From the NCBI GenBank assembly GCA_046290465.1, contig JBKAGP010000001.1, forward strand, positions 1,984,001 through 2,048,000: a stretch of DNA of 64,000 nt, given 5' to 3'. The notes under the pieces were generated by a model. The model worked only from the letters and a program-made list of their open reading frames with translations, searched no databases and had not been told where the DNA came from. This document shows positions 5,998 through 45,283 of this stretch, one piece after another (position 1 is the stretch's first letter; the number at the start of each line of letters is the position of its first letter). This DNA comes from Planctomycetota bacterium (GTDB lineage: Bacteria > Planctomycetota > UBA1135 > UBA2386). The translations under genes and the position numbers were made by a program.

Positions 5998-6642
5998 CTA
6001 CAGGGTGTCGCCGACGACGATCTCAACCCGCCGGTTCGAGGCCTTGTTGCCCCGGTTGAGCGGATCGAACTGGCCGTAGCCGACGATGACGATGGCCGAC
6101 TCGGGCACGCCCTGCTGGATCAGGTAGCGCGCGACGGCGTCGGCGCGCTTGGCCGACAGGTCGCGGTTGCTCGAGTACTTGTCCTTGGTCTTGCTGATCG
6201 GGTCGGTGTCGGTGTGGCCCTCGACGAAGAACCGGCGACCCGAGAACTTCGAGCGCAGCGCCGACGCGACGTTGCGCAGCACCTGGTGGGCCGAGCTCTT
6301 CAACGCGACGCTGCCCGAGTCGAACGTGACCCGGTTGTTGACGCCGATGCTGATGCGACCGCGGCGGTAGCTGACGTCGGCGTCGGTGCCGAGGTCGTTC
6401 TGCAGTTCGTTCAGCAGGCTGTTCGGTTCGCGGCGCGGCGCGGCGGCCTCGACCGGCGCCGGGCGCGAGGAGAGGCGGTTCTGCAACTCCTCGTTCTCGC
6501 CACGGAGGCGGGCGATGTCGCCGTTGAGCGCGCGGATGCGGTCGTCGCGATCGCGCAACATGTCTTGGTAGCGCGTGGTGCAGCTCGTGGCCAGCGACGT
6601 GGCGATGAGCGAGAGAATGAGGAATGCCTTACGGAACTTCAT
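5998..6642 (-). CDS. OmpA/MotB-family peptidoglycan-binding lipoprotein with coiled coil
   Basis: Lipobox LATSC; heptad coiled coil; C-terminal VEGHTD, NRDLSAKRADAV, GYGQFDP, NRRVEI. Confidence 0.88.
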   Translation of the reverse strand: MKFRKAFLILSLIATSLATSCTTRYQDMLRDRDDRIRALNGDIARLRGENEELQNRLSSRPAPVEAAAPRREPNSLLNELQNDLGTDADVSYRRGRISIGVNNRVTFDSGSVALKSSAHQVLRNVASALRSKFSGRRFFVEGHTDTDPISKTKDKYSSNRDLSAKRADAVARYLIQQGVPESAIVIVGYGQFDPLNRGNKASNRRVEIVVGDTL

Positions 6643-6705: not shown

Positions 6706-7665
6706 TCAACGCCGGGCGCGACGCAGCAACCAGAGCATCAGGAACATGGCGCCGACGGCGATCGTCAGCACCAGATACATCGAGGAGGGGTTCTGCCGCT
6801 GCCACTCGGGCCAGTCGACGAACAGCAGCTGCAACAGCCACTCGCCGCCGAACATCGCGACCAGCGCCCCCATGGCGAGATACGGACCGAACGGGATGCG
6901 CGCGAGCAGGCCGCCGCGAAGCGCCAGCACCACGCCGACGACCGCGCCGAACACGCAGCCGAGGAACAGGGTCAGCAGCGCCGCCTTCCAACCGAGGAAC
7001 GCGCCGATCATGCCCATCAGCTTGACGTCGCCGAAGCCCATCGCCTCCTTCTTGAAGACGGCAGAGCCCAGCGCGCGCACGCCCCAGGTGACGCCTCCGC
7101 CGACCACCAGGCCGAGCACGCTCGCCAGCAGCGAACGCAGTTCTGGCGACAGGCTCGCATCGTCGGAGATCATCCCGGCGAGCCCCGGATAGAAGCCCGC
7201 GATCACGCCGACCGCCATGCCCGGCTTGGTCAGCACATCGGGCAGCAGCTGCGTGTCGAAGTCGATGAACGTCAGCGCGATCAGCATCGACACGAACGTC
7301 AGGTGGAAGCCCAGCGCCGTCGCCGCGGCCGCGTCGACGCTGCCGTCGGGCGCGAAGACCGGCCCGAACGGCGGCCACATCGCCAGCACGAACCAGAACG
7401 CGGCGGTCAGCAGTTCGATCGCCGGGTAGCGGAACGAGATGCGCGTGCCACAGCAACGCGCCTTGCCGCGCAGCATCAGCCAGCCGAGCACCGGCACGTT
7501 GTCGTGCCACTGGATCGGGGTGCCGCAGCCAGGGCAGTACGAACGCCCCATCACCGAGCGCTTGCTCGGATCCTCCTGCGGCAGTCGCCAGATGACGACG
7601 TTCAGGAACGAACCGATGCACGCTCCGAACAGAGCTGCTCCCGTTGCGAACACCGTCGAGTCCAT
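6706..7665 (-). CDS. pilD: Prepilin peptidase (A24 family)
   Basis: GSFLNVVIWRLP, RSYCPGC, DNVPVLGWLMLRGKARCC, YPAIEL, FIDFD, AMGFGDVKLM, IPFGPYL. Confidence 0.95.
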   Translation of the reverse strand: MDSTVFATGAALFGACIGSFLNVVIWRLPQEDPSKRSVMGRSYCPGCGTPIQWHDNVPVLGWLMLRGKARCCGTRISFRYPAIELLTAAFWFVLAMWPPFGPVFAPDGSVDAAAATALGFHLTFVSMLIALTFIDFDTQLLPDVLTKPGMAVGVIAGFYPGLAGMISDDASLSPELRSLLASVLGLVVGGGVTWGVRALGSAVFKKEAMGFGDVKLMGMIGAFLGWKAALLTLFLGCVFGAVVGVVLALRGGLLARIPFGPYLAMGALVAMFGGEWLLQLLFVDWPEWQRQNPSSMYLVLTIAVGAMFLMLWLLRRARR

Positions 7666-7866: not shown

Positions 7867-7934
7867 GCCCAGCTCAGTAAGCCCAGCTCAGTAAGCCCAG
7901 CCCAGTAAGCCCAGCCCAGTAAGCCCAGCCCAGT
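7867..7934. repeat. 14-bp tandem repeat GCCCAGC(T/C)CAGTAA, about 4.9 copies
   Basis: Units at 7867, 7881, 7895, 7909 and a partial one at 7923; no spacers; just downstream of the stop codon at 7953. Confidence 0.95.
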
Positions 7935-7952: not shown

Positions 7953-9836
7953 TCAGCGCTGCTCGACGAGGCGCAGCCGCTCGATCGACGGCAGCGGCTC
8001 GCCGCTGTGCACCGTCGCGCGCAGGCGCAGCCGCACGAACGCGCCGGCGCCGGCGACCACGACGTCGCGGTCGCGCGCCGCCTGCCAGCGCCCCATCCGG
8101 CCGGCGCTGGTGTCCGGGCTCTCGCCGCGGATCGGATCGGCCGGGGTGGACTGCCATTCGACCGACAGGCCGCGGCCGAGGCCACCGAGGTGCAGCGTGC
8201 CGCTGTCGCGGTGGTCGGGCAGCTGCCGCCACGGCAGCAGGCCGACCACGTCGAACGCGCTGCCCGACGCGAGCCCGGGCGTGAAGGTCGCGGGGTAGAC
8301 GCGCGACTGGCCGCGGGCGCCGTCGATGCGCGAGCCTGGCTCGCCGGAGCGGGCCTCGACCACCAGCATGGTCTGGAACGGCAGCGTGCCGCGCAGCCGC
8401 AGGTTGGCGGCGCTGGCGAGCAGCAGCGAGGTCTCGGAACCGGTGATCTCGACGTCGGCGGCGATCGTGCCGAGCACCTGCACGTCGCCGGCGGCGACGA
8501 TGCTGACCGGTGCGAGGTCGACCAGGTCGGCCACCGGCTGCGAGCCGAAGCGGCCGGTCGGCAGCGCCACGGTCGGCGCCAGCAGACGCACTTCGCCGGC
8601 GATGCGCACCCCGCCGGTGGCGCACAGGTGCACCGGCTCGCCCTGCGCGTCGATCGTGACGGTCACGCCTTCGGGCACGTCGATCTGCGAGAACGCGAAC
8701 AGCGGGCCGTTGCTGACCTGCAGCTGGCCGTCGCCGCAGTCGAACGGCTCGCCCGGGCGCAGCGTCAGGTCGCGCTGCGGGCGGAACACGCCGAGCGCGC
8801 CGTTGCCGGCCTCGACCCGGACGCGCGGGCGGATGGTCGTGCCGACGACCTCGAAGCCCGGGGCCAGCCCCGCCTCGTCGGCGAAGCCCTCGTCGGCGCC
8901 GGGCCACTCGCAGATCGGCAGGCTGCGCCCCTCGACGACGCTCCAGTAGCTGGCGGTCGCCGGCAGCGGCCGCTGGCCGCCGTAGTCCGTGATCGAACTG
9001 CCGGCGCGCACCGCGACGCTGATCCAGTCGCCTTCGGCGAGCGCGCGCGTGGTGCCGTCGGCGAGGCGCGGCAGCGCGCCGAGGTCGAGCTCGACGGTCG
9101 AGCCCGGGTGGTCGTCGATCGGCGAGGTCAGCACCCGCACGCTGCGCGGCTCGATCTCGGCCGCGGCACCGAGCACCTGGACCTGGAACGCATCGACGTC
9201 GACGGTGCTCGGCAGCAGCGGCTGGGTGAAGTGCAGCAGCAGCCGGGGATCGTCGGCCGCGACATCGAGCGGCACCTCCGAGCGGCGCACGACGAACGGC
9301 AGTTCGCTCGCGGTCGGACGCAGGATCGACGGCAGACCGGCGGGAGCCTGGTGGCGGTCGGCGACGAACACGTCGAACGTCACGGCGGCGTCGAGCCAGC
9401 GGCCGTCCGCGGCGCGGATCGAGTCGGGCCGCGGCTGGCCGGCCAGCTGCAGGCGGTAGCGCGCGCCCGGGCGGAACGAACCGTCCGTCAGGTCGGCGCC
9501 GAGCGGCGGGTCCGGTTGGAACGAGACCCAGTTGCTGCCGACCTCGAGCGTTCCGGGGACGTTGTGGCCCTGTTCGTCGAGCAGCGTCACCGAGTCCTCG
9601 GTGACCGTCATCTTGCGCAGGTCGCCCGAGAAGTAGACCGTCAGCGCGTCGTTGAGCAGCACCGGCTGCTGCGGATCCCCCAGCGCCGGCGAGGTGCGAT
9701 CGACGACCAGCGGCCGGCCTTCGTCGGCCTGCTGCCAGCATCCGCCGAGTGGCGCCGCGGCGAGCAGCGCCACGGCGGCCAGCGGCAGCGCCGGCTCGGC
9801 GCGGCGGCCGGTCGGATTCGGTCGATGGGATCGCAT
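7953..9836 (-). CDS. Large lipoprotein B' (627 aa), Ig-like (SbsA/Big_5-like) domains; paralogue of 14181-17630
   Basis: Likely start MRSHRP at 9836; lipobox PLGGC; TSP...LNDALTVYFS, FRPGARYRLQLAG and LHFTQPLLPST match the neighbouring protein B. Confidence 0.8.
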   Translation of the reverse strand: MRSHRPNPTGRRAEPALPLAAVALLAAAPLGGCWQQADEGRPLVVDRTSPALGDPQQPVLLNDALTVYFSGDLRKMTVTEDSVTLLDEQGHNVPGTLEVGSNWVSFQPDPPLGADLTDGSFRPGARYRLQLAGQPRPDSIRAADGRWLDAAVTFDVFVADRHQAPAGLPSILRPTASELPFVVRRSEVPLDVAADDPRLLLHFTQPLLPSTVDVDAFQVQVLGAAAEIEPRSVRVLTSPIDDHPGSTVELDLGALPRLADGTTRALAEGDWISVAVRAGSSITDYGGQRPLPATASYWSVVEGRSLPICEWPGADEGFADEAGLAPGFEVVGTTIRPRVRVEAGNGALGVFRPQRDLTLRPGEPFDCGDGQLQVSNGPLFAFSQIDVPEGVTVTIDAQGEPVHLCATGGVRIAGEVRLLAPTVALPTGRFGSQPVADLVDLAPVSIVAAGDVQVLGTIAADVEITGSETSLLLASAANLRLRGTLPFQTMLVVEARSGEPGSRIDGARGQSRVYPATFTPGLASGSAFDVVGLLPWRQLPDHRDSGTLHLGGLGRGLSVEWQSTPADPIRGESPDTSAGRMGRWQAARDRDVVVAGAGAFVRLRLRATVHSGEPLPSIERLRLVEQR

Positions 9837-9917
9837 GATTCGCGCCAAGGATATCGGAGGAGGGCCCGGTTGACCCGAAGGCAACCCGCGAAACGAGCGC
9901 TTGCGACGAATGCTCCA

Positions 9918-9960
9918 CAAACGCCGACGGGCCGCCCAGTTGGACGGCCCGTCTGCGGCG
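9918..9960 (-). terminator. Putative intrinsic terminator / stem-loop between lipoprotein A' and B'
   Basis: GACGGGCCG (9926-9934) pairs with CGGCCCGTC (9945-9953); followed on the minus strand by a weak TTTGT tract. Confidence 0.45.
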
Positions 9961-10056
9961 CCGGATGGCGCATCCTCCTGACGAACCGCGCGGCGGGATG
10001 GCGCGCGCGCGGTCGCAGTATGTTCAGGCGCCGGAAACGGCCTGACCGAACCGGCC

Positions 10057-13000
10057 TTACTGGCCGGGCGTCAGGCGGTAGACGACGCTCATGCTGCGCA
10101 GCGACGGCGACAGCGCCGGCGACACGTCGACGTTGTTGCTCATGACGAGGCGCAGGTTCAGGAAGCGCGGCAGCAGGCCGGTCGCCGGGTCGCGGATGTC
10201 GCTGACCTGGTCTTCCGTCACGTAGGCCGTCATGCCGTCGGCGGCGATGCGCGGGGCGGCGTTGAAGTTCGGCGTCGAGTAGCGGTAGGCCTCACACGCG
10301 TAGTTCACGTTCAGCAGGTTGCCGCGCGTGATCGTGTCGTCCGGGTTGGCGCCGAAGCTCGGGTTGTAGAGCACGTTGTTGTTGTCGAACGTCTCGCAAC
10401 CACGCATCTCGACGACCACGCCGGTGCCGGCCGGCTGCTGGGTCTGCGGCGGGTCCAGCTGGACCAGCACGTCCGACATGCGCAGGTTCGGGTTGACCGA
10501 CAGCCAGTCCGGGTAGCCCGGCAGCGCCTGCACCTGCTGGTTCTGGTCGACCAGTTCGGCGCGCTGCGGCTGCAGCGTGTCGAAGAAGCCGAACGTCACC
10601 GTCGAGACGCGACGCACGAAGTCGGCGCGGGCCCAGTAGAGCATGCCGTCGCCCGGGGGCGCCTGGAACAGCGCGGTGACCGCGTTGCCCAGCGCCGGGT
10701 CCTTGACGATGTTCTGGGCGTTGGCCTGCAGCGCGTTGGCCGGGTCCACCAGGATCTCGGCGCCGGTGATCAGGTCGAAGCCACCCGAGGCGTGCACGCG
10801 GACGCGCGGCCACGGCGGGAAACCACCGCCACAGCCACTGCCGAACGTGTCGTAGTAGCCACCGATCGAGTTGTTGACGCTCGGCGGGCCGAGCATCGCG
10901 ACCTGGAAGCCGTTGGTGGCCGAAGCGACGCCGTTCGCCGGGTCCTCCGGGAAGACCTTCATGTCGACCAGCAGCGGCAGCGCGATCGGGTCGTGGTCAC
11001 GCTGCAGGAAGCCGACGAAGTCCTCGTTGTCCATCACCCAGGTGCCCGAACCGCCCTGGAGGAACTCCGGGTCGGGACGGCTGGTGATCCACGGCGAGTC
11101 GATGTGCGCCGTGACGTCGTTGTTCGGGACGTTGGCGTTCGGGTTCTGCGCGCCACCGAGGCCGATGACGTTGCCGCTGGCGTCGACCGTGACCAGGCGC
11201 GAGTCACGCCAGGTGTAGGTCTGGTCGAAGCGCGGGAACGGCACGTAAGCGACGCCGAACTCGTCGCGGCGGACGTCGTTCGGGTTGATCGTGTAGATGC
11301 GGTCCTCGAAGACCGGCGTCATCTGGCTGCCGTCCAGCACGTTGTCGGCGAAGACGTTCGACAGGCCCGAGTTCATCGAGGCGCAGTCGAGCACACACCA
11401 CGACTCCGGCGTCGCGTCGACGACCAGCACCCAGCGCTCGTCCGCACGGGTGCGGGCGTGGCCGAGCGACATCGTGAAGCGATCGAACTCGTCGTAGAGC
11501 ACGGTCTCGTCGTTGAAGGGGCTCCAGTAGAGCTGCTCGATGTCGAGGCCGAAGTCCGACGGCTGCGTGTAGCCGAGCGAGAAGTCGTCCTCGATGTAGC
11601 GCATCTGCATGCGCGAGCCCTGCGGCTTCATCGGCTCGATGACGCGGCCCGACGGCTGCGGCAGCTGCTGGTAGTACTCGTAGACCTGCGGCACGGCCGG
11701 CGGGTTGACCTGGTCGCTCATCCGCGGCTCCCAGTAGAGCAGGCCCGGGTGCGGAGCACCCTGGGTGTCGACCGGGACCACGCCCGGCGCGCCGAGGCGC
11801 GGCAGGATCAGCTGGTTCTGGGTCGCTTCCGTGCCGGGGTAGTTGAACGGGTTGTTCGGCTCGGCCGGCGGCGGATCGCTGTTGTCGGGCTGACCCGAGT
11901 CCCAGCACTCACCGCGGTTGATGCGGCTGATGGCGGCCAGGTTGTTGTTGTTGGCCGAGCGGCGGAAGCGCACACCCGTCGCGCCGGTGAGGCGACCGTT
12001 CTCCAGGCGGAACTGGCCGAACAGGTCGACCGAGCCCGGCTGGGTGCCGTCCTCGTCCTCCGACGTGAACATGTAGGTGTGCCAACCGATCAGGTTCGAA
12101 TTGGCGGACGGATCGAGCTGGAAGTCGACCGACCAGGCCTCCTGCGGGTTCGAGATGTCGTCGAAGATCTCGAGGGTGTTGCCGGCGAGGTCGGTGATGC
12201 CCGCGTTGCCGAGACGGATGTGGGCGCTGTAGACCTCGGCCAAGCCCGCCTGGTGGGCGAAGCCCAGCTGCGGCTGCAGGCGCAGGACCGTGCCGTCGCC
12301 GTCGAGGTCCGTCAGGCGCGACGGCACGACGTGCATCGTGGCGCGCTTCGGATCGGTCATCTGCGAGCCGAACGACTGGTTCGGCTGGTCCGGCTTGGTC
12401 AGCAGCAGGTTGTCCGTGACGTCGACCTGGTCGAGGTCCATCGGCTTGTTGAACTCGAACGCGATCGACGCGTCCGGGTCGATGTCGACGCCCGGCTGGC
12501 CCGGGGCCGGCTCGATGCGCACGAACAGGTTGCGCCAGGCGCGGTCGGTCAGGGCTCCGCCGCCGACGGCGAACGGCACCTCTTCGACGTACGACGCACG
12601 CAGCGTGCAGTCCTCACCGGCCGGCGTGGTGTTGGCCTTGAACGAGACCCGGTTGCCCTCCGAGTCCCGAACCGGGCTGATGGTCGCGACGCGCAGGTTG
12701 ACGACCGGGACGGTCTCGCCCTGGCCCGAGTCGCCCGACGGCGCGTTCGGCGCCTTGCCGAGGCTCGGGTCGCCGGCCTGTGCGGTGATCGACAGGTTCT
12801 CGAGGACCTCGGCGCGGACCGTGACGGTCTCGAACAGGCCCGTCGACAGCTGCACGATGACTTCCTGCGAGATCAGGTCGCCGGCCTCGAGCGGGCGCTG
12901 CACCGGGACGGTGAGCGGGCCGAGCGGCAGGCCGGTGCTGTCCAGCGGACCGTCGACGAACGGGTAACGGGCGCGGATCGGAACGAAGTTCAGGCGCTTG

Positions 13001-14007
13001 TTGACCGTGAGCACGTTGTTGGCGGCGTCGACGCTGACGATGCCCATCGGCAGCGAACCGACCAGCTTCGGCGCCTCCGGCTCCAGCAGGCGGCCGGCTT
13101 CGCCGTCCTGCAGGTTGCCCGAACGGAAGTCGCGGATGACCGACTGGCGGCCGGCGCTGTCCACGCCGTTGAGCTCGGTGACGCCATCGCGATCGATGTA
13201 GAACGACGACAGCACCTGCCCGCGGCTCGGGATCGCGACGCGGATGTTCGCGGTCACGTTGTCGGCCGAGGTCGGCATGCCCGCCGACGTGATGCCGCCG
13301 CCGGCCTCACCACCGAGGATGGTCGTGTCCAGCACCAGCGAGTTGGTGCCGACGACCATGCGGTACGGCAGGATGCGGAACGCGTCGACCGGCTCGACGA
13401 AGTTCGGGTCGCCCTTGAACTCGAGCAGCTGCACCGCCGACGGGTTGGCCGCGAAGAAGTCGGCCGAGGCGCTGAGCGGGCCCGTGAAGGTCAGCTTGAT
13501 CGCCGCGTTGCGCGGCACGATCGGGATCGGGCGCGTCTGCGTGTTCTGGCCGCGGTACGAGTCCGGCAGCGGCACCAGGCCGGTCTGCGCGTTGCTCAGG
13601 GCCTGGTTGAAGTTCTGCTGCTCCGGGCCGGCGCGGTCGTCCCACAGGATCACCAGCTGCTCGTGGCCGACGTCCTTGTCGAACGGCAGGAACTCGTAGT
13701 TGGCGGTCGCCACCGCGTTGCCCGCGGCGTCGAAGATCGACTGCGACTCGATGCCGGGGTTGACCACGACATCCTGCGCGATCAGCTCCAGCTGACGGTT
13801 GCTGCGCAGGCGGCGGTCGCCGACGCTCGGGTCGATCCGGCGGAACGCGTATACGTCGACGAGTCGACCGATCTCGACCCTCGCCAGCGACGGGTTGTTG
13901 CCGTCCTGGCCGACCTGGCCAACCGTCGAGCTCCCGTCACATGCCCACAGGGCGGTGAGGGCGACGGCCAGTGGCCACGCTCGGAACCGGTTCTTCGCTT
14001 GCATCAT
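10057..14007 (-). CDS. Large lipoprotein A' (1316 aa), Ig-like domain; paralogue of 17950-21894
   Basis: Start MMQAKNRF with upstream GAAGG; lipobox LWAC; Big_5-like FEFNKPMD...LRLQP...GITDLAGN; collinear motifs shared with protein A. Confidence 0.85.
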   Translation of the reverse strand: MMQAKNRFRAWPLAVALTALWACDGSSTVGQVGQDGNNPSLARVEIGRLVDVYAFRRIDPSVGDRRLRSNRQLELIAQDVVVNPGIESQSIFDAAGNAVATANYEFLPFDKDVGHEQLVILWDDRAGPEQQNFNQALSNAQTGLVPLPDSYRGQNTQTRPIPIVPRNAAIKLTFTGPLSASADFFAANPSAVQLLEFKGDPNFVEPVDAFRILPYRMVVGTNSLVLDTTILGGEAGGGITSAGMPTSADNVTANIRVAIPSRGQVLSSFYIDRDGVTELNGVDSAGRQSVIRDFRSGNLQDGEAGRLLEPEAPKLVGSLPMGIVSVDAANNVLTVNKRLNFVPIRARYPFVDGPLDSTGLPLGPLTVPVQRPLEAGDLISQEVIVQLSTGLFETVTVRAEVLENLSITAQAGDPSLGKAPNAPSGDSGQGETVPVVNLRVATISPVRDSEGNRVSFKANTTPAGEDCTLRASYVEEVPFAVGGGALTDRAWRNLFVRIEPAPGQPGVDIDPDASIAFEFNKPMDLDQVDVTDNLLLTKPDQPNQSFGSQMTDPKRATMHVVPSRLTDLDGDGTVLRLQPQLGFAHQAGLAEVYSAHIRLGNAGITDLAGNTLEIFDDISNPQEAWSVDFQLDPSANSNLIGWHTYMFTSEDEDGTQPGSVDLFGQFRLENGRLTGATGVRFRRSANNNNLAAISRINRGECWDSGQPDNSDPPPAEPNNPFNYPGTEATQNQLILPRLGAPGVVPVDTQGAPHPGLLYWEPRMSDQVNPPAVPQVYEYYQQLPQPSGRVIEPMKPQGSRMQMRYIEDDFSLGYTQPSDFGLDIEQLYWSPFNDETVLYDEFDRFTMSLGHARTRADERWVLVVDATPESWCVLDCASMNSGLSNVFADNVLDGSQMTPVFEDRIYTINPNDVRRDEFGVAYVPFPRFDQTYTWRDSRLVTVDASGNVIGLGGAQNPNANVPNNDVTAHIDSPWITSRPDPEFLQGGSGTWVMDNEDFVGFLQRDHDPIALPLLVDMKVFPEDPANGVASATNGFQVAMLGPPSVNNSIGGYYDTFGSGCGGGFPPWPRVRVHASGGFDLITGAEILVDPANALQANAQNIVKDPALGNAVTALFQAPPGDGMLYWARADFVRRVSTVTFGFFDTLQPQRAELVDQNQQVQALPGYPDWLSVNPNLRMSDVLVQLDPPQTQQPAGTGVVVEMRGCETFDNNNVLYNPSFGANPDDTITRGNLLNVNYACEAYRYSTPNFNAAPRIAADGMTAYVTEDQVSDIRDPATGLLPRFLNLRLVMSNNVDVSPALSPSLRSMSVVYRLTPGQ

Positions 14008-14180
14008 GTCAGTGCCTTCGTTGTGGGGGCCGGCGGGCAAGGGCCGGCGGTTTGTCTGCGAGCCATATTGCAGCCTCGCAGGCAGGTATCGGAATCTGGA
14101 GGGATTGTGCGTGTAGCGTTCGGGAAGGTCCGTTGCCATCGGCCTGGGCGGCCGCGGCTCAGGACCTCCCCATCAGGGGA

Positions 14181-17100
14181 CTAGAACCGGAACGGCAGGC
14201 GGAGGAAGTGCAGTTCCGGACGCGGGGTCTCGGGGTTGAGGCCCGGCGGCGAATCGGCGGCGACCGCTCGGAACGCCGTGTCGAACGTCAGGTCCCACTG
14301 CACGAAGCTGGCGCCGAGCTGGCGAACCTGCTCCTGCACGGCCGGGTCCGTCAGGTCGTAGAGGAACGTGCCCTCCTGCGCCGGCAGGCGCTGCGCCGAC
14401 GGGTCGGCCGGGTTCTGGTGGAACGCGAAGCCGAAGCGGATGTTCGAGACCGGCACGCGGTTCGACGCGCTGCCGGCGTAGGTCGGGCCGAGGCCTTCGC
14501 TGCCGTTGGTCACGATCGAGAAGAACTTGGCGATGACGCGGACCTGCGTGGCCGCGACCTCGAGCGCACCCGACTCGGGCGACAGCACCAGTTCGTTCTG
14601 CGTGTGCGCCAGGATCCGGTAGCTGCCGAGCACCTCGTTGCTCGACGCGAGCAGCTGCGCCTCGTACTGGACGTAGCGGTCGTCGGTCTGCCCCATCGCC
14701 GCCGAGGCCAGCGTGACCCGGTAGGCCGGGCGGCCCAGGTAGGTCGAGTTGGCGTTGCGGTTCAGGATGCCGACCGGAGCGACGACCTCGGGGTTGACGA
14801 CGCGCGCCTGGCCCTGCACGACCTCGAACTTGGCGTAGCCGAGTGAGACGCTCGACGCGTTGTCCTCGACGCCGAGCCACTCGTACTTCGGACCGGCCTG
14901 CGCGCCCGCCTGCTCGACGATGCCGCGCGGCAGGTTGTCGTCGGCGATCAGCGCGCGGCGCGCGGTGGCGCCGGTGTCGATCCACTTCGAGCGCAGGCGC
15001 GAGGTGTTGGCGAACGGCGACGGCAGCAGCACCGGCGCCGGCCGGATCTCGCCCTCGTCCTCGTTGAGCGGGTTGACCGGCTGGCCCTGGTCGTCGACGC
15101 CGATGCCGAACGAGTTCGGGAAGCCCTGCCAGCGCAGCAGGTCGATCTTGCTCTGGCCGAGCGCCTCGATGCCGCCGGTGAAGACGCGGATGTTGTCGTC
15201 GAGCACCGTGTTGGTGTTGTCGACGCTGTTGTCCCCCGGCGGCACCATCAGCTGCACGATGCCCATGCCGCCGAAGCCGCCGAGCGGCGCGTCGTCGTAG
15301 GTCTCGACCCAGCTGTTGATGGCGATGTCGGGGTTGTAGGTGATCGCGGTGCCGCTCGCCGGGTACTTGCCCGTCACGACCGGCGGCTGGGCGCCGGTGA
15401 CGCACACGCCACCGTCGGCCGAGATCGCGAAGTCGTAGTCGTTGTCCTCGTACGAGTAGTTCAGGCCGTTGCCCGAGCTGGCGTTGATCACGATGCCCTT
15501 GGCCGACATCAGGATGACCATGCCGCCGGCACCACCGCCGCCACCGCCACCGCGGGTCGACGACGAGGACGGCTCACCACCGCCACCGCTGCCGCCGTCG
15601 GCGGTGATGCGACCACCTTCGTTGATAATGATCTCCTCGAGCGCCTTGACGATCAGCACGCCGCCGCCGCCACCGCCGCCGCCGCCGGAGCTGTCGTTCT
15701 CGAAGTTCGGGTCGGTGACGCCGCAGTCCGAGTTGTACGACAGGTCGCCGCCGCCGCCGCCACCGCCGCCGCCGATCGGGACCGACAGCTCACCGGTGAT
15801 GCGGAGGTTGGTATCGTAGCGAACACCGACGCCCCAGAAGTTGTTGTCGTTGCGGGCATCGACGAACACCGTCGGACCCGGGACCGCGCCCTCGAGGCTG
15901 CGGGTCGGGCGACCGGTGTCGCCTTCGCAGCCCTGGCCGCCGACGCCCGTCTGCTGCTGGAACACCGGGAACGGGTTGACCGGGGCCGGGTTGCCGGTGC
16001 CGATCGGGACCGTGCCCGCCGGCTGGATCTGCTGCTTGAAGCCCGGGTCCCCCTGGGTCGCGAGCGAGCCGCCACCGCCACCAGCGCCGCGGCCACAGCC
16101 AGCGGTGCACGACAGCGCGCCGCCGCGGCCACCCTGGCCGGCGGCCTGCAGCGGGCCGTTGCCGGTCTCACCGGCGAGGTCGCGCTCGGTCGCGCTCGGC
16201 GAGCCGGCGCCGCCGTCACCGCCGCCACACACGCCCGCGCCGCCGCTCTTGGCGACGTTGGCGTTGCCCGACGTGTTGACGCGCTGGCCGTCGCCACCGC
16301 GGACCGACAGCGTGCCCGAGACCTCGAAGGTCTCCGACACCAGCCAGACCATCGGGTTGGTGCCCTGGCCCTGGACCGTGCGGCCGGCCGGGATGTTGAC
16401 GCTGCGGAAGTTGAAGACGCCGCCCGAGACGTTGAACGGCGAGCCGTTCTTGGGCTGGACCAGCGTGAAGTCCGTGTTGAGCACGGTCATCGGCGCGGTC
16501 GGCTCGAACTCGGCTCCGGTGACGTTGCCTTCGAAGTCGAAGCCCGCCTTCAGGAAGCCGGGGCCGACTTCGCCGACCGGCTCCGAGAACGCGGCGGTCA
16601 TGTCGACGTTGGAGGTCGCCAGGAAGTCGTCGACCAGGCCGTCGAACTGCTGCTCGTAGGCGCGGCGCGTCTTGAAGGTCGCGAAGATCCGCTCGTAGGC
16701 GACGTTGGCGACGTTCGACTCACCGGAGATGTCCTCGAGGGTGCGCTCGACGACGACGCGGATGGTCGCGTTGTTCGGCAGCACACCGAGCGGACGCATG
16801 ACCAGCGTGGCGCCGTCCGAGGCGTTCGTCTCGAGCTCGACGTCGGCCGGGATCCAGACGTTGTCGCCGAACTCCGGGTCGTCGTACTCGAGGAACACCC
16901 GGCCGCGGCTGTTGCTGTTGCGCGTCAGCGGGTCGGTCTGGATCGCGGTCGGCACGTTGGTGCTCGACGGGTTGAGCGGCTGGTCGAAGCGCAGACGCAG
17001 CTCGACCGGGGCCGCGCCCAGCTTGTTCAGCACGACGCCGGTGGTGTCCGGCGTCGGGGTGACCTCGAACGCCGTCCGCCTCGGCCCGCCCGGCGCCGTG

Positions 17101-17630
17101 TTGCGGAACAGCGCCGACGGCGTCGTGCCGTCGGCCGTCTTGAAGCGGAACGTGCGCGGCAGCGCCAGCGCCTTGCCGCCGACGTCCCGCAGCACCGTGC
17201 CGTTGTTGCGGTTGCCCCCCACCAGCTGCACCTCGTAGGTGCGGCCCGGGCGGAAGCCGCCGTTGGTGTAGAGGTTGTTGGTCGGCAGCACCGGCACGAA
17301 GCGCAGACGACGGCCCGCTTCCGTGTCACCCGGACTGGTGCCCAGCTCGAAGCGACCGGCGACCGGTTCGGCGACCGGCTGCCCGATCTGGTCGAAGACC
17401 TGGAACGTGAAGGTCGACAGGTTGACCGAGTCGAGGTTCACGCGGTTGCTGAAGTCGATCCGGATCGGGTCGTTCAGGAACAGTTGGCCGTTGTCACTCG
17501 GCTCGGTGCTGAGGACGACGAAGTCGCCTCCGGTCTTGACGCCCCCGGTCGAGCCACCGCCGCCGCCACAGGAGGCGAGAGCAGCCAGAACGGCCAGGGA
17601 GAACAGTCGGGTGGTGGACACTCGAGTCAT
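14181..17630 (-). CDS. Large lipoprotein B (1149 aa), two Ig-like domains plus glycine-rich region
   Basis: Start MTRVSTT; lipobox LASC followed by a Gly linker; STEPSDN...LNDPIRIDFS, FRPGRTYEVQL, LRFDQPLNP...LEDISG; poly-Gly tracts. Confidence 0.85.
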   Translation of the reverse strand: MTRVSTTRLFSLAVLAALASCGGGGGSTGGVKTGGDFVVLSTEPSDNGQLFLNDPIRIDFSNRVNLDSVNLSTFTFQVFDQIGQPVAEPVAGRFELGTSPGDTEAGRRLRFVPVLPTNNLYTNGGFRPGRTYEVQLVGGNRNNGTVLRDVGGKALALPRTFRFKTADGTTPSALFRNTAPGGPRRTAFEVTPTPDTTGVVLNKLGAAPVELRLRFDQPLNPSSTNVPTAIQTDPLTRNSNSRGRVFLEYDDPEFGDNVWIPADVELETNASDGATLVMRPLGVLPNNATIRVVVERTLEDISGESNVANVAYERIFATFKTRRAYEQQFDGLVDDFLATSNVDMTAAFSEPVGEVGPGFLKAGFDFEGNVTGAEFEPTAPMTVLNTDFTLVQPKNGSPFNVSGGVFNFRSVNIPAGRTVQGQGTNPMVWLVSETFEVSGTLSVRGGDGQRVNTSGNANVAKSGGAGVCGGGDGGAGSPSATERDLAGETGNGPLQAAGQGGRGGALSCTAGCGRGAGGGGGSLATQGDPGFKQQIQPAGTVPIGTGNPAPVNPFPVFQQQTGVGGQGCEGDTGRPTRSLEGAVPGPTVFVDARNDNNFWGVGVRYDTNLRITGELSVPIGGGGGGGGGDLSYNSDCGVTDPNFENDSSGGGGGGGGGVLIVKALEEIIINEGGRITADGGSGGGGEPSSSSTRGGGGGGGAGGMVILMSAKGIVINASSGNGLNYSYEDNDYDFAISADGGVCVTGAQPPVVTGKYPASGTAITYNPDIAINSWVETYDDAPLGGFGGMGIVQLMVPPGDNSVDNTNTVLDDNIRVFTGGIEALGQSKIDLLRWQGFPNSFGIGVDDQGQPVNPLNEDEGEIRPAPVLLPSPFANTSRLRSKWIDTGATARRALIADDNLPRGIVEQAGAQAGPKYEWLGVEDNASSVSLGYAKFEVVQGQARVVNPEVVAPVGILNRNANSTYLGRPAYRVTLASAAMGQTDDRYVQYEAQLLASSNEVLGSYRILAHTQNELVLSPESGALEVAATQVRVIAKFFSIVTNGSEGLGPTYAGSASNRVPVSNIRFGFAFHQNPADPSAQRLPAQEGTFLYDLTDPAVQEQVRQLGASFVQWDLTFDTAFRAVAADSPPGLNPETPRPELHFLRLPFRF

Positions 17631-17949
17631 GGCGCTATTGCGAGCTGGACCGACCCATGTCGGTCCTGCCGTGAAATCTAGGGCGGGAGAGGGTTTCCAA
17701 GGGCGAAGCCAACCCGAGTCTACCCCACGCAAAGCACATACGGCGCACGGACGTCCGGCCGGAGAGCCGCTCGTTGCGTTGCATCGTTGCCATGGGGAGG
17801 TGCTCGCGTCGCAGCGCGAGAGCGCGACGCAAAAGGGGACTCGGGGGGAGAAGGCTCGGCCCTCGGGGAGGGGCCATCAGGGGAATGGGAAGGTCAGGAG
17901 TTGCGGCCGATCGCGCGCTGGGGAGAACGCGCGACCGGGGTCGCGCCCC

Positions 17950-20900
17950 CTACTGCTGCTGCCAGCGGTAGGAGAGCGCGAAGGTCTCGATCGTCGGCGA
18001 GACCGGCGGGTTGGCTTCGGCGTTGTTGGCCGCGATGAAGCGCCAGTTGACGAAGCGGATGTCGCGCGGGTTGAACGTCTCGTTCGGGCCCGCGAAGTCC
18101 AGCGTGTAGGCCGGATCCATCAGCGTGTTCGGGTCCTCGACGTAGGTCGTGACCGTGCGGTTGTAGAGGTAGGTCCACCAGTTCCGCGCCTGGGACGAAC
18201 CCGGGATCGGACGGTTGTCCCACTTGCGCATGTGTGCGTCGCCGGCCTTGAACGGGTCGAGCGGGAAGTTGTCGTTGGTCGGCCGCAGCTGGGCGCGGTC
18301 GTTCGCCGAGAACTCGTTGTTGGTGAACAGCGACGACGAGTTGGCGATCCAGGCGTTGTAGTAGAACGGGATCGTGTCGACGGCGCTGGCGCCGCGGAAC
18401 TGCGGCACGATCGACGTGCCCGACGGCAGCAGCGACAGCGGCGGGTCGAACTCGTAGGCGAACGACGGCAGCACGCCCTGCGGCGCGGCCGGCTGGCCGT
18501 TGACCAGGTAGAACGGACCGAGGCGCGGGTCCTCGAAACCTTCCGGCACCCGGTGCGGGTTGTAGAGGTCGATGAAGCCGTTGGTGATGACGGTCTGGCG
18601 CTTCGCGCAGTCCATCATGATCCAGTAGAACGTGTTGTCGCCACCACCGGCCGGCGTCACGCCGCCGGTCGGGGTGAAGCCACCCGAGGCGGTGTTCCAC
18701 TGGCTGTCGCCGGGGCCGCGGCAGATCGGCGGCGAACCGTTCGGCAGCGCGGCGCGGCCGGCGCTGACGACGCGGAAGTTCGGCTTCGGGTCGGACTGGA
18801 CCGTCACCGCGGTCTGCCAACCGTTGGTGCCGAGCGCGATGTAGCCACCACCCGCCGGGAGCTCCGACGAGTCGCAGTAGGTCCAGAAGTCGGCCAGCAG
18901 CGGCAGCGCGATGTTGCCCATCAGGCCGCCGGTGTAGTCGTCGACGTTGGCCGGCGTCGCCAGCGAGTGGCTGCGGGCGTCGTTCCAGTAGCTGTTGACG
19001 AAGCGCACGGCGCCGGGGGCACCGTCGTCGTCGATCCAGCGGCTGCCCTGACCCATGCTGAACGGCGACAGGATGTAGGGCGCGTAGTCGGCGCCGTTGA
19101 TGTCCGAGCCGTCGTTCGGCGAGTCGGCCGAACGGCCGCCCTGCTCGATGACCGTCTCGTCGCGGTAGACGAAGTAGGGCTCCTGGAAGGTCGGCAGCGG
19201 CAGGAAGCGGTTGACCTGGTTGACCTCGAGCACGACCTGCGACGGATCGATCACCATGTTGGTGTCGACGTAGGCCGCGTTGCGGGGCGCCTGGCTCTCG
19301 ATCGTGTTGCCGTTGCCGCTCGGGACGCCGTTCCAGGCGAAGTTGCGCTCGAACGACGTGCGCAGACCCGACTGGGTGAACGACGGCAGCGAGCTGAAGT
19401 CCCCGACACACGGGATCGGGCGGTACTCCGAGTGGCCGAGCCACATCGACACGCGGTCGAACTCGTCGAACGTCAGGTTGGTGCCCGTGTAGGGCGCCCA
19501 GTACATCTGCTCGATGTCGAGGTTGAAGTCGAACGGGTCGGTGCGCGACAGGCTCAGGTCGATCTCGCGCCAGACGGTCTGCAGGCGGCAGCCGTACGGG
19601 TTCAGCGGGTTCTGGATGCCGGCAGGCACCAGGTTGTTCGCCGAGTTCGAGCCGACCTGCGTCTCGTTGGTGAAGAACTGCGGGCACCAGCCGAGCGGGT
19701 TCTGCGGCGCCGGCGTGGCCGGCTGCTGCTGGATCGGCGACTGGTTGAGGTTGTCGGCGACCACGCGCACGCGGGTCGTCGGGCGCGCCTGCAGCTTGTT
19801 GTCGAGGTAGAGGAACGCGCCGAACATGTCCTCGAGCGGGTAGGCCTTGGCGATCTGCGCCTGGCCTTCCCCCTGCACCTCTTCGGGCAGGAAGTAGCTC
19901 GGCCGGGCGTCCTCGTCGCGCGACGCGAAGCGGCGCACGATGTTGATCGACAGGTTGTCGGCGAACACCGGCTCGGCGCCGTTCATGCGGGTGTCGACCG
20001 TGAACGGGATCACCACGCTGTTGCTGCGATCGGCGGTCGTGCCCTGCAGGTCGAGCGGGTTGCCCGCCAGGTCCTTGATGCCACCGTCGTCCGAGTCGGA
20101 GATCAGGTGCAGGAAGTAGCGGTAGTCGGCGCCCGACGGCGGGTTCCGCATCGTGTCGTCGAGGTAGAAGCCGGTCGACGGCTGCAGGCGCAGCGACGTC
20201 TGCGAACCGTCCTCGTCGAACACGCGCGACGTGATCAGGTAGGGCGTGCGGTACTTCGCCAGGTCGAACGTGGCCGGGTTCATGCCCGTGCCGGTGACGC
20301 CGCCGTTGTTCCACGGCCGGCTGGCGATGAACTCCTCGATGCTGTCCTCGGTCGAGAGGTCGCGCATCGCGAAGAAGAACGTGTCGGCCCACTTGACCGT
20401 CTCGAGGTCGATCGGCTTCGTGAAGCGCACGACCGCGCCGGCGAACGGCGACACGAACTCGTTCTGCTGCGGGCGGTAGCCGTTCAGCTCGAGCGGCGCC
20501 GGCGTGAACTGCAGGAAGTTGCGCGGATCGTCGCGGCCCTCGGCGGCGCCGGCGGTGAACTCGGCGACGACGACCGAACGCGGCGCGTTGAGCACCAGCC
20601 ACGGCTCCCGTTCGGAGAGCGACGACGGGTAGCCCGGCAGGTTGCGCGGGTCGATGGTCTCGAGGTTCTCGATGCGCCGGATGCGCACGCGCACGTGCTG
20701 CACGGCCGGGTTGTCGCGGTCGTCCTCCGGGTCGACGACGACCTCGGCGCTGCCGAACGGCACGCCCGACGAGTCGTTGACGAAGCGGATCACGTCGCCG
20801 CGGTCGATCTCGTGGCTGAGGCCGTTCTTGTAGACCGTGACCTCCTGCGTGAACTGGTTGATGCTCTCGACGCGCTCGAGATACATCGGGATCTCACCGA

Positions 20901-21894
20901 TGACGCGCAGCGGCAGCGGATCGCGCACGAAGCCCCGCGCGATGTCGGCCGAGTCGTCGTTCTGGTTGCCCGAACGGAAGTCGCGCACGATCGAGTTGCG
21001 CTGGCTGTTGTTCAGGCCGGACAGGCCGCCGCTGGTCTGCAGGCGCAGGCCCGGAATCGCCAGCGGGCCCTCGAGGGCCAGCGCGACGCGGATGTTGGCG
21101 CCGAACTGGTCCGGCGAGGCCGGCAGGCCGGCCGCGTTGTTGGCGGTCTGGTACTGCAGGCCCTCGGTGCCAAGCAGCACCGGGTCGAGCACCAGCTGCG
21201 ACTCACCCACCACGATTCGGACCGGCATCGGCACGAAGCCGTTCGGCTGCGTCGGGTCGTCGACGATGCGCAGCAGCTGCACCGCCTCGGTGTTGCGCAG
21301 TTCGTTGACCTGGCCGTTGGCGTCGCGGCCGACGAAGAAGCTGTCGTCGATGCCGAGCTTGGCCGAGAAGCGCAGGCGGATGCCGGCGTTGCGCGGCACG
21401 ACCGAGAACGGCACGCCGTTGCTCTGCTGGCCGAACAGCATCGGCGAGACCGTGCGCAGCTGGTCGTCGAGCGCCTCGAAGGCGGTCGCGAACTCGGTGC
21501 CGGTCACGTCGCGCGGGATGAACAGTCGCGCCTGCAGCGTGTCCGGGTCGGTGCCGATGAAGTCGTAGGTGATCTCGCTGTCGGACAGGTTCGAGTTGGT
21601 CCCGCGCTGATCCTGGATGTTGCCGCCGATGACCACGTCCTTGCGATACAGCGTGATCGTCGAACCCTGCGGCGTGATCTGCAGGCCGTAGACGTCGACC
21701 AGGCGGCCGTATTCGACTGCGACCAGTTCGGGCTGCACGGTCGCGCCGGGGGTCGTGTTGGCGACACCGCCGCCGCCACTGCCGCTACATCCGCCGAGGG
21801 AGAGCGCGCCGAGCGCGAACGCGCCGGCCAGCAGGAGCTGGGAGCCGAGGGAGCGACCGGGGGCGCCGGTCGGCGTGCAATTGTCTGCCATCAT
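17950..21894 (-). CDS. Large lipoprotein A (about 1314 aa), Ig-like domain
   Basis: Lipobox LGGC then SGSGGGG; VRFTKPID...LRLQP...GIKDLAGN; start uncertain (21894, 21891 or 21924). Confidence 0.85.
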   Translation of the reverse strand: MMADNCTPTGAPGRSLGSQLLLAGAFALGALSLGGCSGSGGGGVANTTPGATVQPELVAVEYGRLVDVYGLQITPQGSTITLYRKDVVIGGNIQDQRGTNSNLSDSEITYDFIGTDPDTLQARLFIPRDVTGTEFATAFEALDDQLRTVSPMLFGQQSNGVPFSVVPRNAGIRLRFSAKLGIDDSFFVGRDANGQVNELRNTEAVQLLRIVDDPTQPNGFVPMPVRIVVGESQLVLDPVLLGTEGLQYQTANNAAGLPASPDQFGANIRVALALEGPLAIPGLRLQTSGGLSGLNNSQRNSIVRDFRSGNQNDDSADIARGFVRDPLPLRVIGEIPMYLERVESINQFTQEVTVYKNGLSHEIDRGDVIRFVNDSSGVPFGSAEVVVDPEDDRDNPAVQHVRVRIRRIENLETIDPRNLPGYPSSLSEREPWLVLNAPRSVVVAEFTAGAAEGRDDPRNFLQFTPAPLELNGYRPQQNEFVSPFAGAVVRFTKPIDLETVKWADTFFFAMRDLSTEDSIEEFIASRPWNNGGVTGTGMNPATFDLAKYRTPYLITSRVFDEDGSQTSLRLQPSTGFYLDDTMRNPPSGADYRYFLHLISDSDDGGIKDLAGNPLDLQGTTADRSNSVVIPFTVDTRMNGAEPVFADNLSINIVRRFASRDEDARPSYFLPEEVQGEGQAQIAKAYPLEDMFGAFLYLDNKLQARPTTRVRVVADNLNQSPIQQQPATPAPQNPLGWCPQFFTNETQVGSNSANNLVPAGIQNPLNPYGCRLQTVWREIDLSLSRTDPFDFNLDIEQMYWAPYTGTNLTFDEFDRVSMWLGHSEYRPIPCVGDFSSLPSFTQSGLRTSFERNFAWNGVPSGNGNTIESQAPRNAAYVDTNMVIDPSQVVLEVNQVNRFLPLPTFQEPYFVYRDETVIEQGGRSADSPNDGSDINGADYAPYILSPFSMGQGSRWIDDDGAPGAVRFVNSYWNDARSHSLATPANVDDYTGGLMGNIALPLLADFWTYCDSSELPAGGGYIALGTNGWQTAVTVQSDPKPNFRVVSAGRAALPNGSPPICRGPGDSQWNTASGGFTPTGGVTPAGGGDNTFYWIMMDCAKRQTVITNGFIDLYNPHRVPEGFEDPRLGPFYLVNGQPAAPQGVLPSFAYEFDPPLSLLPSGTSIVPQFRGASAVDTIPFYYNAWIANSSSLFTNNEFSANDRAQLRPTNDNFPLDPFKAGDAHMRKWDNRPIPGSSQARNWWTYLYNRTVTTYVEDPNTLMDPAYTLDFAGPNETFNPRDIRFVNWRFIAANNAEANPPVSPTIETFALSYRWQQQ

Positions 21895-22264: not shown

Positions 22265-23629
22265 TCAACCGTTCGGGAACGCGAAGCCGGCCGCCAGCGC
22301 CTGGTCCTCGGTCTCGAAGTAGACCCGATCGCCGGCCTCGATCGCGGCGACCGCGGCGTCGCCGTGCGGGTGCAGCGCGCGGCTCGACAGCGCGCCGACG
22401 AAGCGGGCCTCGACCTCGCGTTCGCAGTAGGCGCACGCGAGCACTACCGGCGAGGTGTCGGGGCGCACCCGGAAGTCGCGCTCGAGGTAGCGCACGCCCT
22501 CGTTGTTGGTGATGCAGCGCTCGTTGCGGCAGCGCGGGCCGACGCCGCCGGCGCCGGTGTCGCCGGGCGCGACCGACAGCATCTCCGGCGGCGCGGCGCG
22601 CAGCTGGATCTTGCCGAGCTGGTAGGCCATCAGCGCCATCCGCATCGGCACGCCGAGCTCCGCCTGGCGGAAGTAGACCGAGCGCGGGTCGTCGTCGAGT
22701 TCGTAGCTGATCTCGTCGACCCGCGGCAGCGGGTGCATGACGCGCGCGTCCTTGGTGGCGGCGGCGCCCATCGTCGAGCGCGTCAGCCGCGGGTAGTCCT
22801 TGGTGTCCTCGCCGTCGTGCCGCTCGCGCTGCGCGCGGGTCATGTAGATCGCGTCGATGCGCGACACCTCGACGTTGCCGAGGTTGGTGAACAGCGCCAG
22901 CTGGTGCGGCTTGCTCGCGGTCAGGTAGGCCGCGGCGTTGCTGCTGCCGGCGAGGCCGGGCAGGTCGCCGACCGACGCGGTCGCGGCCTGCACCCCGTAG
23001 TCACGACGCAGCCGCTGCAGCACGTAGTCCGGCAGTTCGAAGCCCGGGTAGGGCATCGTCACGATGTTGGCGCCGAACCGCGCCAGCGCGTAGCAGAACG
23101 AGTGGATCGTGCGCGAGTAGCGCAGGTCGCCGCAGAGCACCACCTCGAGGCCCTCGAGGCGGCCCTTCTCCTTCCACAGCGTGTAGAGGTCGCAGAGGGT
23201 CTGCGTCGGGTGCTCGTGCGCGCCGTCGCCGCCGTTGACGACCGGCACGGTGGCGTAGCGTGCGGCGACCCGGGCGGCGCCGTCCTCGGGGTGGCGCACG
23301 ACCAGGATGTCGGCGTAGCTGCCGCCGACGACCCGCACGGTGTCGGCGAGCGACTCGCCCTTGGCACGGCTGGTGCTCTCGCCGTCGGCCGCGGTGATCA
23401 CGCCGCCGCCGAGTCGCAGCATCGCCGACTCGAAGCTCAGGCGCGTGCGCGTCGACGGCTCGAAGAACAGCGTCGCCATGATCGCGCCGCGACACAGGTC
23501 CGACCAGGCGTGCAGGTTGGCCCGGAATTCGTCGGCGTGGTGGAAGAGTTCGAGGATCTCGGCGGTGCTCAGGTCCTCGATGGAAACCAGGTCACGCTTG
23601 ACGTGTTCGGCCATCGACCCCGACATCAT
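22265..23629 (-). CDS. pyrB: Aspartate carbamoyltransferase catalytic chain fused to a PyrI-like Zn domain and an Ada-metal-binding-like tail
   Basis: FFEPSTRTRLSF, KGESLADT, HPTQTL, GDLRYSRT, MHPLPR; C-terminal CRNERCITN...CAYCE. ATG at 23629 overlaps the upstream stop (ATGA); alternative start 23614. Confidence 0.93.
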   Translation of the reverse strand: MMSGSMAEHVKRDLVSIEDLSTAEILELFHHADEFRANLHAWSDLCRGAIMATLFFEPSTRTRLSFESAMLRLGGGVITAADGESTSRAKGESLADTVRVVGGSYADILVVRHPEDGAARVAARYATVPVVNGGDGAHEHPTQTLCDLYTLWKEKGRLEGLEVVLCGDLRYSRTIHSFCYALARFGANIVTMPYPGFELPDYVLQRLRRDYGVQAATASVGDLPGLAGSSNAAAYLTASKPHQLALFTNLGNVEVSRIDAIYMTRAQRERHDGEDTKDYPRLTRSTMGAAATKDARVMHPLPRVDEISYELDDDPRSVYFRQAELGVPMRMALMAYQLGKIQLRAAPPEMLSVAPGDTGAGGVGPRCRNERCITNNEGVRYLERDFRVRPDTSPVVLACAYCEREVEARFVGALSSRALHPHGDAAVAAIEAGDRVYFETEDQALAAGFAFPNG

Positions 23630-25376: not shown

Positions 25377-25390
25377 CCGATCCGCCGCGG

Positions 25391-45233: not shown

Positions 45234-45283
45234 CGGGCAGAACATGTTGCCGCCTCGCGCCGACTTGTAAACTCGCTGCCCGA

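Follow-up and report, generated by a model that had tools for sequence, protein, structure and literature searches.

Large lipoproteins on a shared Ig–Ig–jelly-roll chassis, encoded beside type IV filament genes in Planctomycetota: known folds in an undescribed arrangement

A 64,000-nucleotide stretch of a Planctomycetota genome (assembly GCA_046290465.1, contig JBKAGP010000001.1, positions 1,984,001 to 2,048,000; hereafter the window, whose own numbering is used below) contains a cassette of four co-oriented genes on the minus strand, designated A (17950..21894; 1314 aa), B (14181..17630; 1149 aa), A′ (10057..14007; 1316 aa), and B′ (7953..9836; 627 aa). Each open reading frame (ORF) begins with a signal peptide ending in a lipobox with a conserved cysteine—LGGC, LASC, LWAC, and LGGC, respectively—which is the signature of signal peptidase II substrates, and the gene for that peptidase, LspA, is present in the same genome. 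A model-made first-pass annotation had described four giant lipoproteins here; the lipoboxes and shared orientation are borne out, with "giant" a fair description of A, B, and A′ but not of the 627-aa B′. G+C content at third codon positions is 0.93–0.95 across the four ORFs, and long plus-strand frames antisense to the real genes were rejected as shadow ORFs. The four products belong to a real, old, and widespread envelope superfamily in which known folds are combined in an undescribed arrangement.

Sequence comparison joins the four proteins by several routes. A and A′ are collinear from end to end (25% identity, E 5e-62), and all ten motifs listed earlier as shared by these paralogues are visible in the whole-length alignment. 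B and B′, also proposed as relatives from shared motifs, match by BLASTP over the N-terminal 210 columns only (30% identity, E 1e-9); profile comparison carries the match to 355 columns, reaching into the solenoid described below (probability 99.7). Pairwise comparison of A with B finds no similarity (best E 1.5). Distant orders, however, carry A-types of 650–890 aa. A profile built from these short forms aligns with 597 columns of the long A (probability 100) and with 308 columns of B (probability 99.7, E 2.6e-25), the latter running from the lipobox to where the jelly roll begins. By this profile comparison, A and B are themselves homologous, a point absent from the first-pass annotation, which had seen SbsA/Big_5-like immunoglobulin (Ig) motifs in every protein. 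The Pfam model Big_5 (PF13205; cut-off 23.6 bits) recognises B (34.2) and B′ (25.2), whereas A′ (17.4) falls below the cut-off and A has no match; among short A-types, five of six exceed it. The profile matches between A, short A, B, and B′ thus define the unit as lipid–Ig–Ig–jelly roll with an exchangeable insert, and the structural models agree: each protein consists of a lipoprotein signal, a flexible tether, a stalk of two Big_5 Ig domains, and a split jelly-roll head that is closed by the last strand and carries a family-specific passenger.

The lipobox cysteine is invariant in 18/18 aligned B′ rows and in 11/11 diverse B rows, and is kept in at least 90% of 120 B rows. Aspartate at position +2 of A′ was considered as a sorting signal and rejected, being found in 8 of the 14 A′ homologues in which a lipobox was found. 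A- and B-types of families f30 and f61 (L077:7188-11192, L087:5281-11288) have an ordinary N-terminal signal peptide in which no lipobox is seen. All four proteins of the window are acidic and poor in lysine (0.2–1.5%).

The AlphaFold model of B (predicted local distance difference test score, pLDDT, 89.9; predicted template modelling score, pTM, 0.81) begins with an Ig domain (residues 16–149) that matches the Ig domains of CopC, SbsC, and Ldt proteins (Z 10–11, root-mean-square deviation (rmsd) 2–3 Å, around 100 residues aligned; for SbsC 4uj6, Z 10.0, rmsd 3.3, 100 aligned). A second Ig domain extends to around residue 301. The jelly roll, built from residues near 305 together with the C terminus, resembles the carbohydrate-binding module CBM16 2zew (Z 7.2, rmsd 4.4, 124 aligned) and is interrupted by the passenger, a beta-solenoid at residues 344–851 (approximately 15018..16541, minus strand, from the model range and glycine runs). 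A small barrel spans residues 930–1015. The solenoid matches the DUF3494 protein 7bwx (Z 9.1, rmsd 2.8, 121 aligned) and, weakly, the tip pilin ComZ (6qvi; Z 6.8, rmsd 3.4, 137 aligned). The glycine runs of B fall within the solenoid range, and these glycine-rich segments may form a polyglycine II bundle. B′ is a reduced B that lacks the glycine-rich inserts.

The architecture of A is that of a 1127-residue orthologue from genome G037 (39% BLAST identity to A), which was folded instead of A itself (pLDDT 91.6, pTM 0.87). Its model comprises an elaborated Ig domain (19–280), a second Ig domain (293–563) with an inserted small beta-barrel (302–406), and a split jelly roll (578–1125) in which a second jelly roll is nested (617–961). 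This nested domain is the passenger of A (approximately 18601..19779, minus strand, mapped via conserved alignment columns) and the most conserved part of the A family in the alignments. It resembles the lectin-like domain of Cwp84 (4ci7; Z 6.7, rmsd 3.5, 147 aligned), the Bxb1 tail tip (9d93; Z 7.4, rmsd 3.8, 162 aligned), and the non-catalytic N-terminal domains of esterases (7tog; Z 7.5, rmsd 3.3, 154 aligned). The esterase likeness, together with the conserved His, Asp, Glu, and Arg residues of the passenger, five of them invariant among 45 diverse A rows (H724, D692, R818, D819, and R908), could suggest that A is a surface enzyme of unrecognised type and B its substrate-binding partner. 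The matched domains are, however, beta-sandwiches, and searches of Pfam, NCBIfam, and PHROGs with the four proteins return nothing but Big_5 and no catalytic family—as the first-pass annotation had anticipated in recognising no enzymatic motif—so an enzymatic role seems very improbable.

The best Foldseek match of the A model is a phage 812 baseplate chain, with an E-value of 1.6e-7 but a TM-score of 0.10. On realignment, this chain (9eui_Q, numbered to 1152) gives Z 8.1 and rmsd 11.4 for 257 residues spanning both jelly rolls; from its length and described domains, it is probably the trimeric tripod protein gp119. According to PMC13433997, the base and fin of that protein are CBM16/61-like and its leg resembles Cwp84. 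A may share with gp119, and with the phage tail adsorption proteins of HFTV1 and Bxb1, a CBM16-like base closed by the C terminus and an inserted Cwp84-like lectin domain. Against the phage base-and-leg arrangement, A aligns at Z 7.4–8.1 over 257–268 residues; the two nonetheless differ widely, with 7%–9% identity and an rmsd of 11–19 Å. Matches to the viral fold library reach a TM-score of at most 0.13 over the query, no PHROG family is found for A, A′, or B′ (B has one weak, unnamed match), and tblastn against phages returns no match. The cassette also lies outside any phage module, and a prophage origin was rejected, the neighbours being pilus and housekeeping genes.

Judged by such searches, the four proteins fall outside SslE, PilY1/ComZ, SbsC-type anchoring, and phage modules. 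Neither the M60-like zinc metalloprotease domain of SslE/AcfD (Pfam and NCBIfam) nor the PilY1 propeller (PF05567) or a pilin N terminus is matched at E ≤ 0.1, and the N termini are lipoboxes; a PilY1 search of the whole genome gave no match, but no control responded, which makes it uninformative. The B passenger is a beta-solenoid like those of Thermus ComZ and the DUF3494 ice-binding proteins; B differs from both in having a lipobox, an Ig stalk, a jelly roll, and glycine-rich inserts, and it has no pilin domain. SbsC-type S-layer proteins carry an N-terminal wall-binding region (SLH or a helical bundle), assemble by themselves into a paracrystalline lattice, and rank with the most abundant proteins of the cell. 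The cassette proteins share with Big_5/SbsC/CopC-like proteins the fold of their two stalk domains, a domain-level match only; they have no more than two of these, their heads are large and non-Ig, and a lipid anchor takes the place of the wall-binding region. Pfam finds no SLH match in any of the four, and the models begin with tether and beta-sandwich. Fold searches list no full-length match, type V pilin, or propeller, although whole-chain searches are dominated by other domains and cannot exclude them. Sequence searches of solved structures find no match for A, B, or the short-A profile; for the B profile, the sole matches are weak and glycine-rich, Obg (E 0.02) among them. In the Atlas, nothing usable turns up for A, and B retrieves hypothetical Big_5 clusters only. 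Among A homologues the best 120 of 323, and among B homologues the best 120 of 301, are unnamed, hypothetical, or "Ig-like domain-containing" and, where labelled, come mostly from Planctomycetota. No database names the family, and no description of it was found in the open literature searched. The words "lipoprotein" and "S-layer" are absent from the searched main-text parts of 10.1101/817700 and 10.64898/2026.10.26.761892, as are "lipoprotein" and "Ig-like" from the main text of PMC11032199 in a search for these terms.

Of 40 relatives, 39 have A. With a profile drawn from 45 diverse A-types, matches are near full-length in 27/27 sampled genomes of the window's order, and 102 of 373 genomes from other orders show partial ones; around two candidates were scored per genome, and many of the weak matches span only an Ig domain. 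Whole families show no A-type match (f13, 0/24; f11, 0/6). With a shorter A orthologue as query, 434 representatives are recovered at E ≤ 0.001. A scan of named genomes revealed no cultured carrier (four loci, all in metagenome-assembled genomes, one a weak Ig-only match), and ten of ten clusters are unnamed or hypothetical. The window's genome itself holds a solo A paralogue (A3; 58% identity, G000:C1:4565006-4569139) and two solo B paralogues (B3 and B4; 54% and 53%, 1763608-1767114 and 2521255-2524740), all in unrelated neighbourhoods. Three further B-like lipoproteins, C1–C3, lie outside the window, 13–23 kb beyond pilC (G000:C1:1960310-1970017); these are glycine-rich with a cysteine-rich N terminus and group in a separate clade with the genes found after the locus in family f9.

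Across 15 genomes from families f1 and f7, gene order agrees with A-B-A′-B′-pilD-ompA as far as contigs reach, with local extras (A-A-B-A′ in G019; A-B-B-A′-B′ in G037). B′ adjoins pilD in 14 of these 15, the remaining case being a contig end, and in 8/8 genomes of other families. All eight genomes from four other families of the order show pyrB, one to four A genes, B, B′, and pilD (G241 has A-B-A-B′); the conserved unit is A(1–4 copies)-B-B′-pilD. Among 22 genomes of other orders, chosen for their best A matches, a B-type follows A in 12 and pilD directly follows the cassette in eight. A-then-B pairing, also seen in 8/8 genomes of the order's other families, recurs well beyond the window, so that the homologues are not dispersed without such pairing, a pattern the first-pass annotation had named as refuting its proposal; both distribution and gene order thus support the earlier proposal of an undescribed, conserved set of envelope lipoproteins beside pilD and type IV filament genes.

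The same annotation had explained the alternating order by an ancient duplication of an A+B pair, an explanation that the trees overturn. A FastTree tree was built from 891 columns of 42 A-types, with f1 reduced to six loci sets and the window's genome and with f3 left out. It places A and A′ as sister clades restricted to f1 and f7 (support 1.0), while multiple A copies in other families mostly cluster by genome or family. A′ is thus an A paralogue specific to f1 and f7 among the families in the tree. The B/B′ tree covers the Ig1–Ig2 region (50 rows, 236 columns; seven rows were cut from the ORF start, no lipobox being found). Here, 19 B′ rows from nine families, three of them outside the order, group together (0.904), separate from a clade of 19 B rows (0.961), and two B rows from distant orders are unplaced. 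The B/B′ split is far older than the A/A′ split and most lineages carry A(n)-B-B′; A-B-A′-B′ is therefore no duplicated pair. B′ is the fastest evolving of the four and has been cut to its two Ig domains in families f9, f68, and f103 (232–273 aa in five genomes).

The cassette is flanked by secretion and pilus genes, all on the minus strand. On one side lie pilD (6706..7665), encoding a prepilin peptidase with Pfam A24_N_bact and Peptidase_A24 domains; a lipoprotein gene (5998..6642) whose OmpA/MotB domain match makes it a putative peptidoglycan anchor; an EF-G2-like GTPase, a housekeeping gene within the block (3326..5383); pilT (1997..3121; TIGR01420 over cut-off); and pilB (278..1993; TIGR02538 at 660.6 bits, slightly below the cut-off of 675.65), with pilC and a pilin gene next, outside the window. 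On the other side lie pyrB (22265..23500), a short MnmE-like GTPase well below family cut-offs (23626..24657), coaX for type III pantothenate kinase (24657..25400), and a membrane protein gene kept upstream of the cassette (25391..26701), the starts of the first three being approximate. The last has a C-terminal PDZ domain, with weak matches below cut-off, and no match to a GspC model; it is called gspC-like from the layout. The adjacency of PilD, OmpA, PilTBC, and GspC-like genes noted previously therefore holds, with EF-G2 lying between ompA and pilT, and coaX, the MnmE-like gene, and pyrB between the gspC-like gene and A. The pyrB product is fused to the PyrI C-terminal metal-binding domain, and this fusion is also kept in relatives. 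Tandem repeats occupy two intergenic sites (14 bp × 5.6 between B′ and pilD, 7856-7934; 16 bp × 4.6 before the gspC-like gene, 26924-26997). A promoter scan of the cassette found 0 against 0.5 expected, and no terminator was found on its coding strand. Elsewhere in the window, positions 43167-45245 encode a 692-aa protein whose sole domain match is MutS domain V.

In relatives, this neighbourhood extends further upstream. A block of pilM-pilN-pilO-secretin-rne followed by rplU-rpmA-obg-pilT2 adjoins the gspC-like…A block in five of six loci, the extended locus of G322 showing none of it; Pfam confirms PilM, PilO, and a secretin whose N0 domain is GspD-like, and pilN is labelled by position only. 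Several relatives thus hold the cassette between pilM-pilO-secretin-pilT2-gspC-like and pilD-ompA-pilT-pilB-pilC-pilin. In the window's genome, the pilM…pilT2 block lies elsewhere (G000:C1:6104550-6112519). An apparent rearrangement is visible there: rpsL-rpsG runs into the gspC-like gene (26701-26983), and an EF-G-like gene and rpsJ come after the displaced block (genes labelled by eye). This genome has seven secretin genes over the Pfam cut-off; two form a divergent pair near 1.70 Mb that is also present in the five other genomes checked.

Such a setting raises the possibility that the lipoproteins are structural parts of the machine itself—a secretin collar or cap, or a pilus-tip adhesin complex with B′ as a pilotin-like member. 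Their position amid a complete type IV filament gene set would fit, as would the weak likeness of the B solenoid to ComZ and that of the short B′ to a small accessory lipoprotein beside the peptidase, such as YghG in E. coli. None of A, B, A′, or B′ has a prepilin signal, however, and most of the phylum is piliated without a detectable cassette. In families f9 and f68, moreover, A-B-B′-pilD is kept although pilT-pilB-pilC no longer follow (best PilB matches 37%–46%); a structural role in the machine is accordingly quite unlikely.

Codon usage and sequencing-run coverage suggest that the A-B-A′ transcript is the more abundant. Measured against six reference genes (ribosomal and EF-Tu), codon bias places A, B, and A′ at the 90th, 94th, and 96th percentiles and B′ at the 56th (rpoB 89, rpoC 96, pilin 98). 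In run X1, only guessed to be RNA, contigs exceed a depth of 0.5 in 18/18 bins over A-B-A′ versus 1/12 outside (1/6 when GC-matched), three of the covered bins lying outside the stretch by which the run was picked; in run X2, recorded as a seawater metatranscriptome, depth is found in 14/18 versus 4/12 bins. The raw-read RNA runs X15 and X17 gave 1 and 0 reads, too few to bear on expression. Across 12 relatives, A, B, and A′ are conserved about as well as PilD and EF-G2, less than PyrB and PilT/B/C, and more than B′ and the gspC-like protein; among neighbouring housekeeping enzymes, they evolve more slowly than CoaX only.

A hetero-oligomeric surface coat, lattice, or fibre, an idea that goes back to the first-pass annotation, could account for several of these features, with A-types as the bulk subunit (one to four interchangeable paralogues), B as a second subunit, and B′ as a minor anchor or terminator. 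It would draw together the A-B-B′ order fixed across several orders, the common chassis with its equal stalk length and strong conservation, and the apparent abundance of A, B, and A′ beside a scarce B′. B′ is retained even when trimmed to two Ig domains, which implies that the stalk binds something, and A-types lacking a lipobox would need a partner to stay attached; the nested A head, furthermore, aligns with the phage 812 chain that is probably the trimeric tripod protein. On the other hand, solo copies and A-only loci exist, and copy number and order vary (A-A-A-A-B-B′, A-B-B-A′-B′). Prediction of a complex between the A stalk (mature residues 18–602) and the B stalk (14–303) scored 0.00 against a mark of 0.32, which speaks neither for nor against pairing. 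Bacteroidetes type V pili (Fim/Mfa) are likewise encoded by operons of paralogous lipoproteins with bulk and minor members; their pilins have a two-domain transthyretin-like fold and polymerise by donor-strand exchange after proteolytic release. The cassette proteins differ in being much larger, with a Big_5 stalk, a jelly-roll head, and type IV filament linkage. The passages of 10.1101/817700 on cultured "Saltatorellus"-clade cells, possible carriers of the cassette, describe a fragile outer membrane and mention no S-layer. A coat, lattice, or fibre appears unlikely.

The reading tentatively favoured is that the four are lipoproteins that bind glycans at the cell surface and owe their export or display to the co-encoded type II secretion system (T2SS)/type IV pilus machine; they would possibly work like SslE or InvL while lying outside those families. 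After lipidation, A, B, A′, and B′ would fold in the periplasm, and a hybrid machine of GspD-type secretin, PDZ-bearing GspC-like protein, PilM/N/O, PilB/C/T, and PilD would move them to, or hold them at, the cell surface. There, the lectin-like A head and the solenoid head of B could attach to glycans of particles, algae, or other cells; A, B, and A′ would be the abundant members and B′ a minor adaptor or anchor. The E. coli cluster reads yghJ(sslE)-pppA-yghG-gspC and SslE secretion needs PppA (PMC3707838), while InvL of Acinetobacter baumannii is a lipid-anchored adhesin whose surface exposure depends on the T2SS (PMC9245377). The cassette resembles the first in placing a very large lipoprotein gene directly before a prepilin peptidase gene and near gspC, and the second in encoding putative lipid-anchored adhesins, although InvL requires the T2SS whereas the cassette is tied to it by gene linkage alone. 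There is no common sequence family with either; the cassette comprises three to six paralogues on one chassis, kept across many orders, and its adjacent machine, through which export would occur, also has PilM/O and PilT.

Several observations weigh against the favoured reading. In 10 of the 22 other-order genomes, A has no B within 20 kb (at least three are cut by contig ends), and these loci and the solo A and B copies show that the cassette genes can be inherited separately. Housekeeping genes (rne, rplU, rpmA, obg, coaX, pyrB, and EF-G2) are kept in the block as faithfully as the cassette, which weakens a functional reading of the linkage, since it may be inertia. PilT occurs in 393 of 401 genomes versus A-type matches in 130; pili thus do not need the cassette, and PilT is uninformative as a phyletic partner. 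The head Z-scores (6.5–9) lie in a range that the tool describes as possibly a mere common arrangement, and fold alone shows no ligand. As for expression, contigs give neither strand nor level, the RNA nature of X1 is a guess, and the runs were picked with part of the cassette. The conservation of A, B, and A′ is also higher than is usual for diversifying adhesins. The linkage and solo-copy observations would also suit independent surface adhesins or lectins that use another export route, with the pilus neighbourhood a matter of inherited gene order, as would the absence of pilT-pilB-pilC after the cassette in f9 and f68. Those two families, however, still hold four to seven secretins each, and in 6/6 genomes of f68 the locus has lost pyrB but kept A-B-(B′)-pilD as one group; independent export is therefore also doubtful.

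Display by the T2SS/type IV pilus machine would connect this lipoprotein family to a locus without a substrate or adhesin known from the literature consulted. The analysis describes, at the level of structure, an envelope family that is large, conserved, and apparently highly expressed, from a branch that is mostly uncultured and whose cell surface is poorly understood, and a chassis with swappable inserts makes specific tests possible. A bolder and improbable extension is that the proteins form a lipid-anchored coat or fibre, an ancestral and lineage-defining structure of deep-branching Planctomycetota: one Ig–Ig–jelly-roll chassis whose exchangeable heads would be kin to phage adsorption proteins, with the hybrid machine as its site of assembly or route of export. 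The report 10.1101/817700 describes PilB and PilT in cultured "Saltatorellus"-clade strains, which may belong to the order and may carry the cassette, and suggests a role for pili in locomotion or aggregates. If the extension were true, the structure would represent a bacterial surface appendage of a new class; should the "Saltatorellus" strains carry the cassette, it would also be a candidate basis for that clade's sticky aggregates and surface motility.

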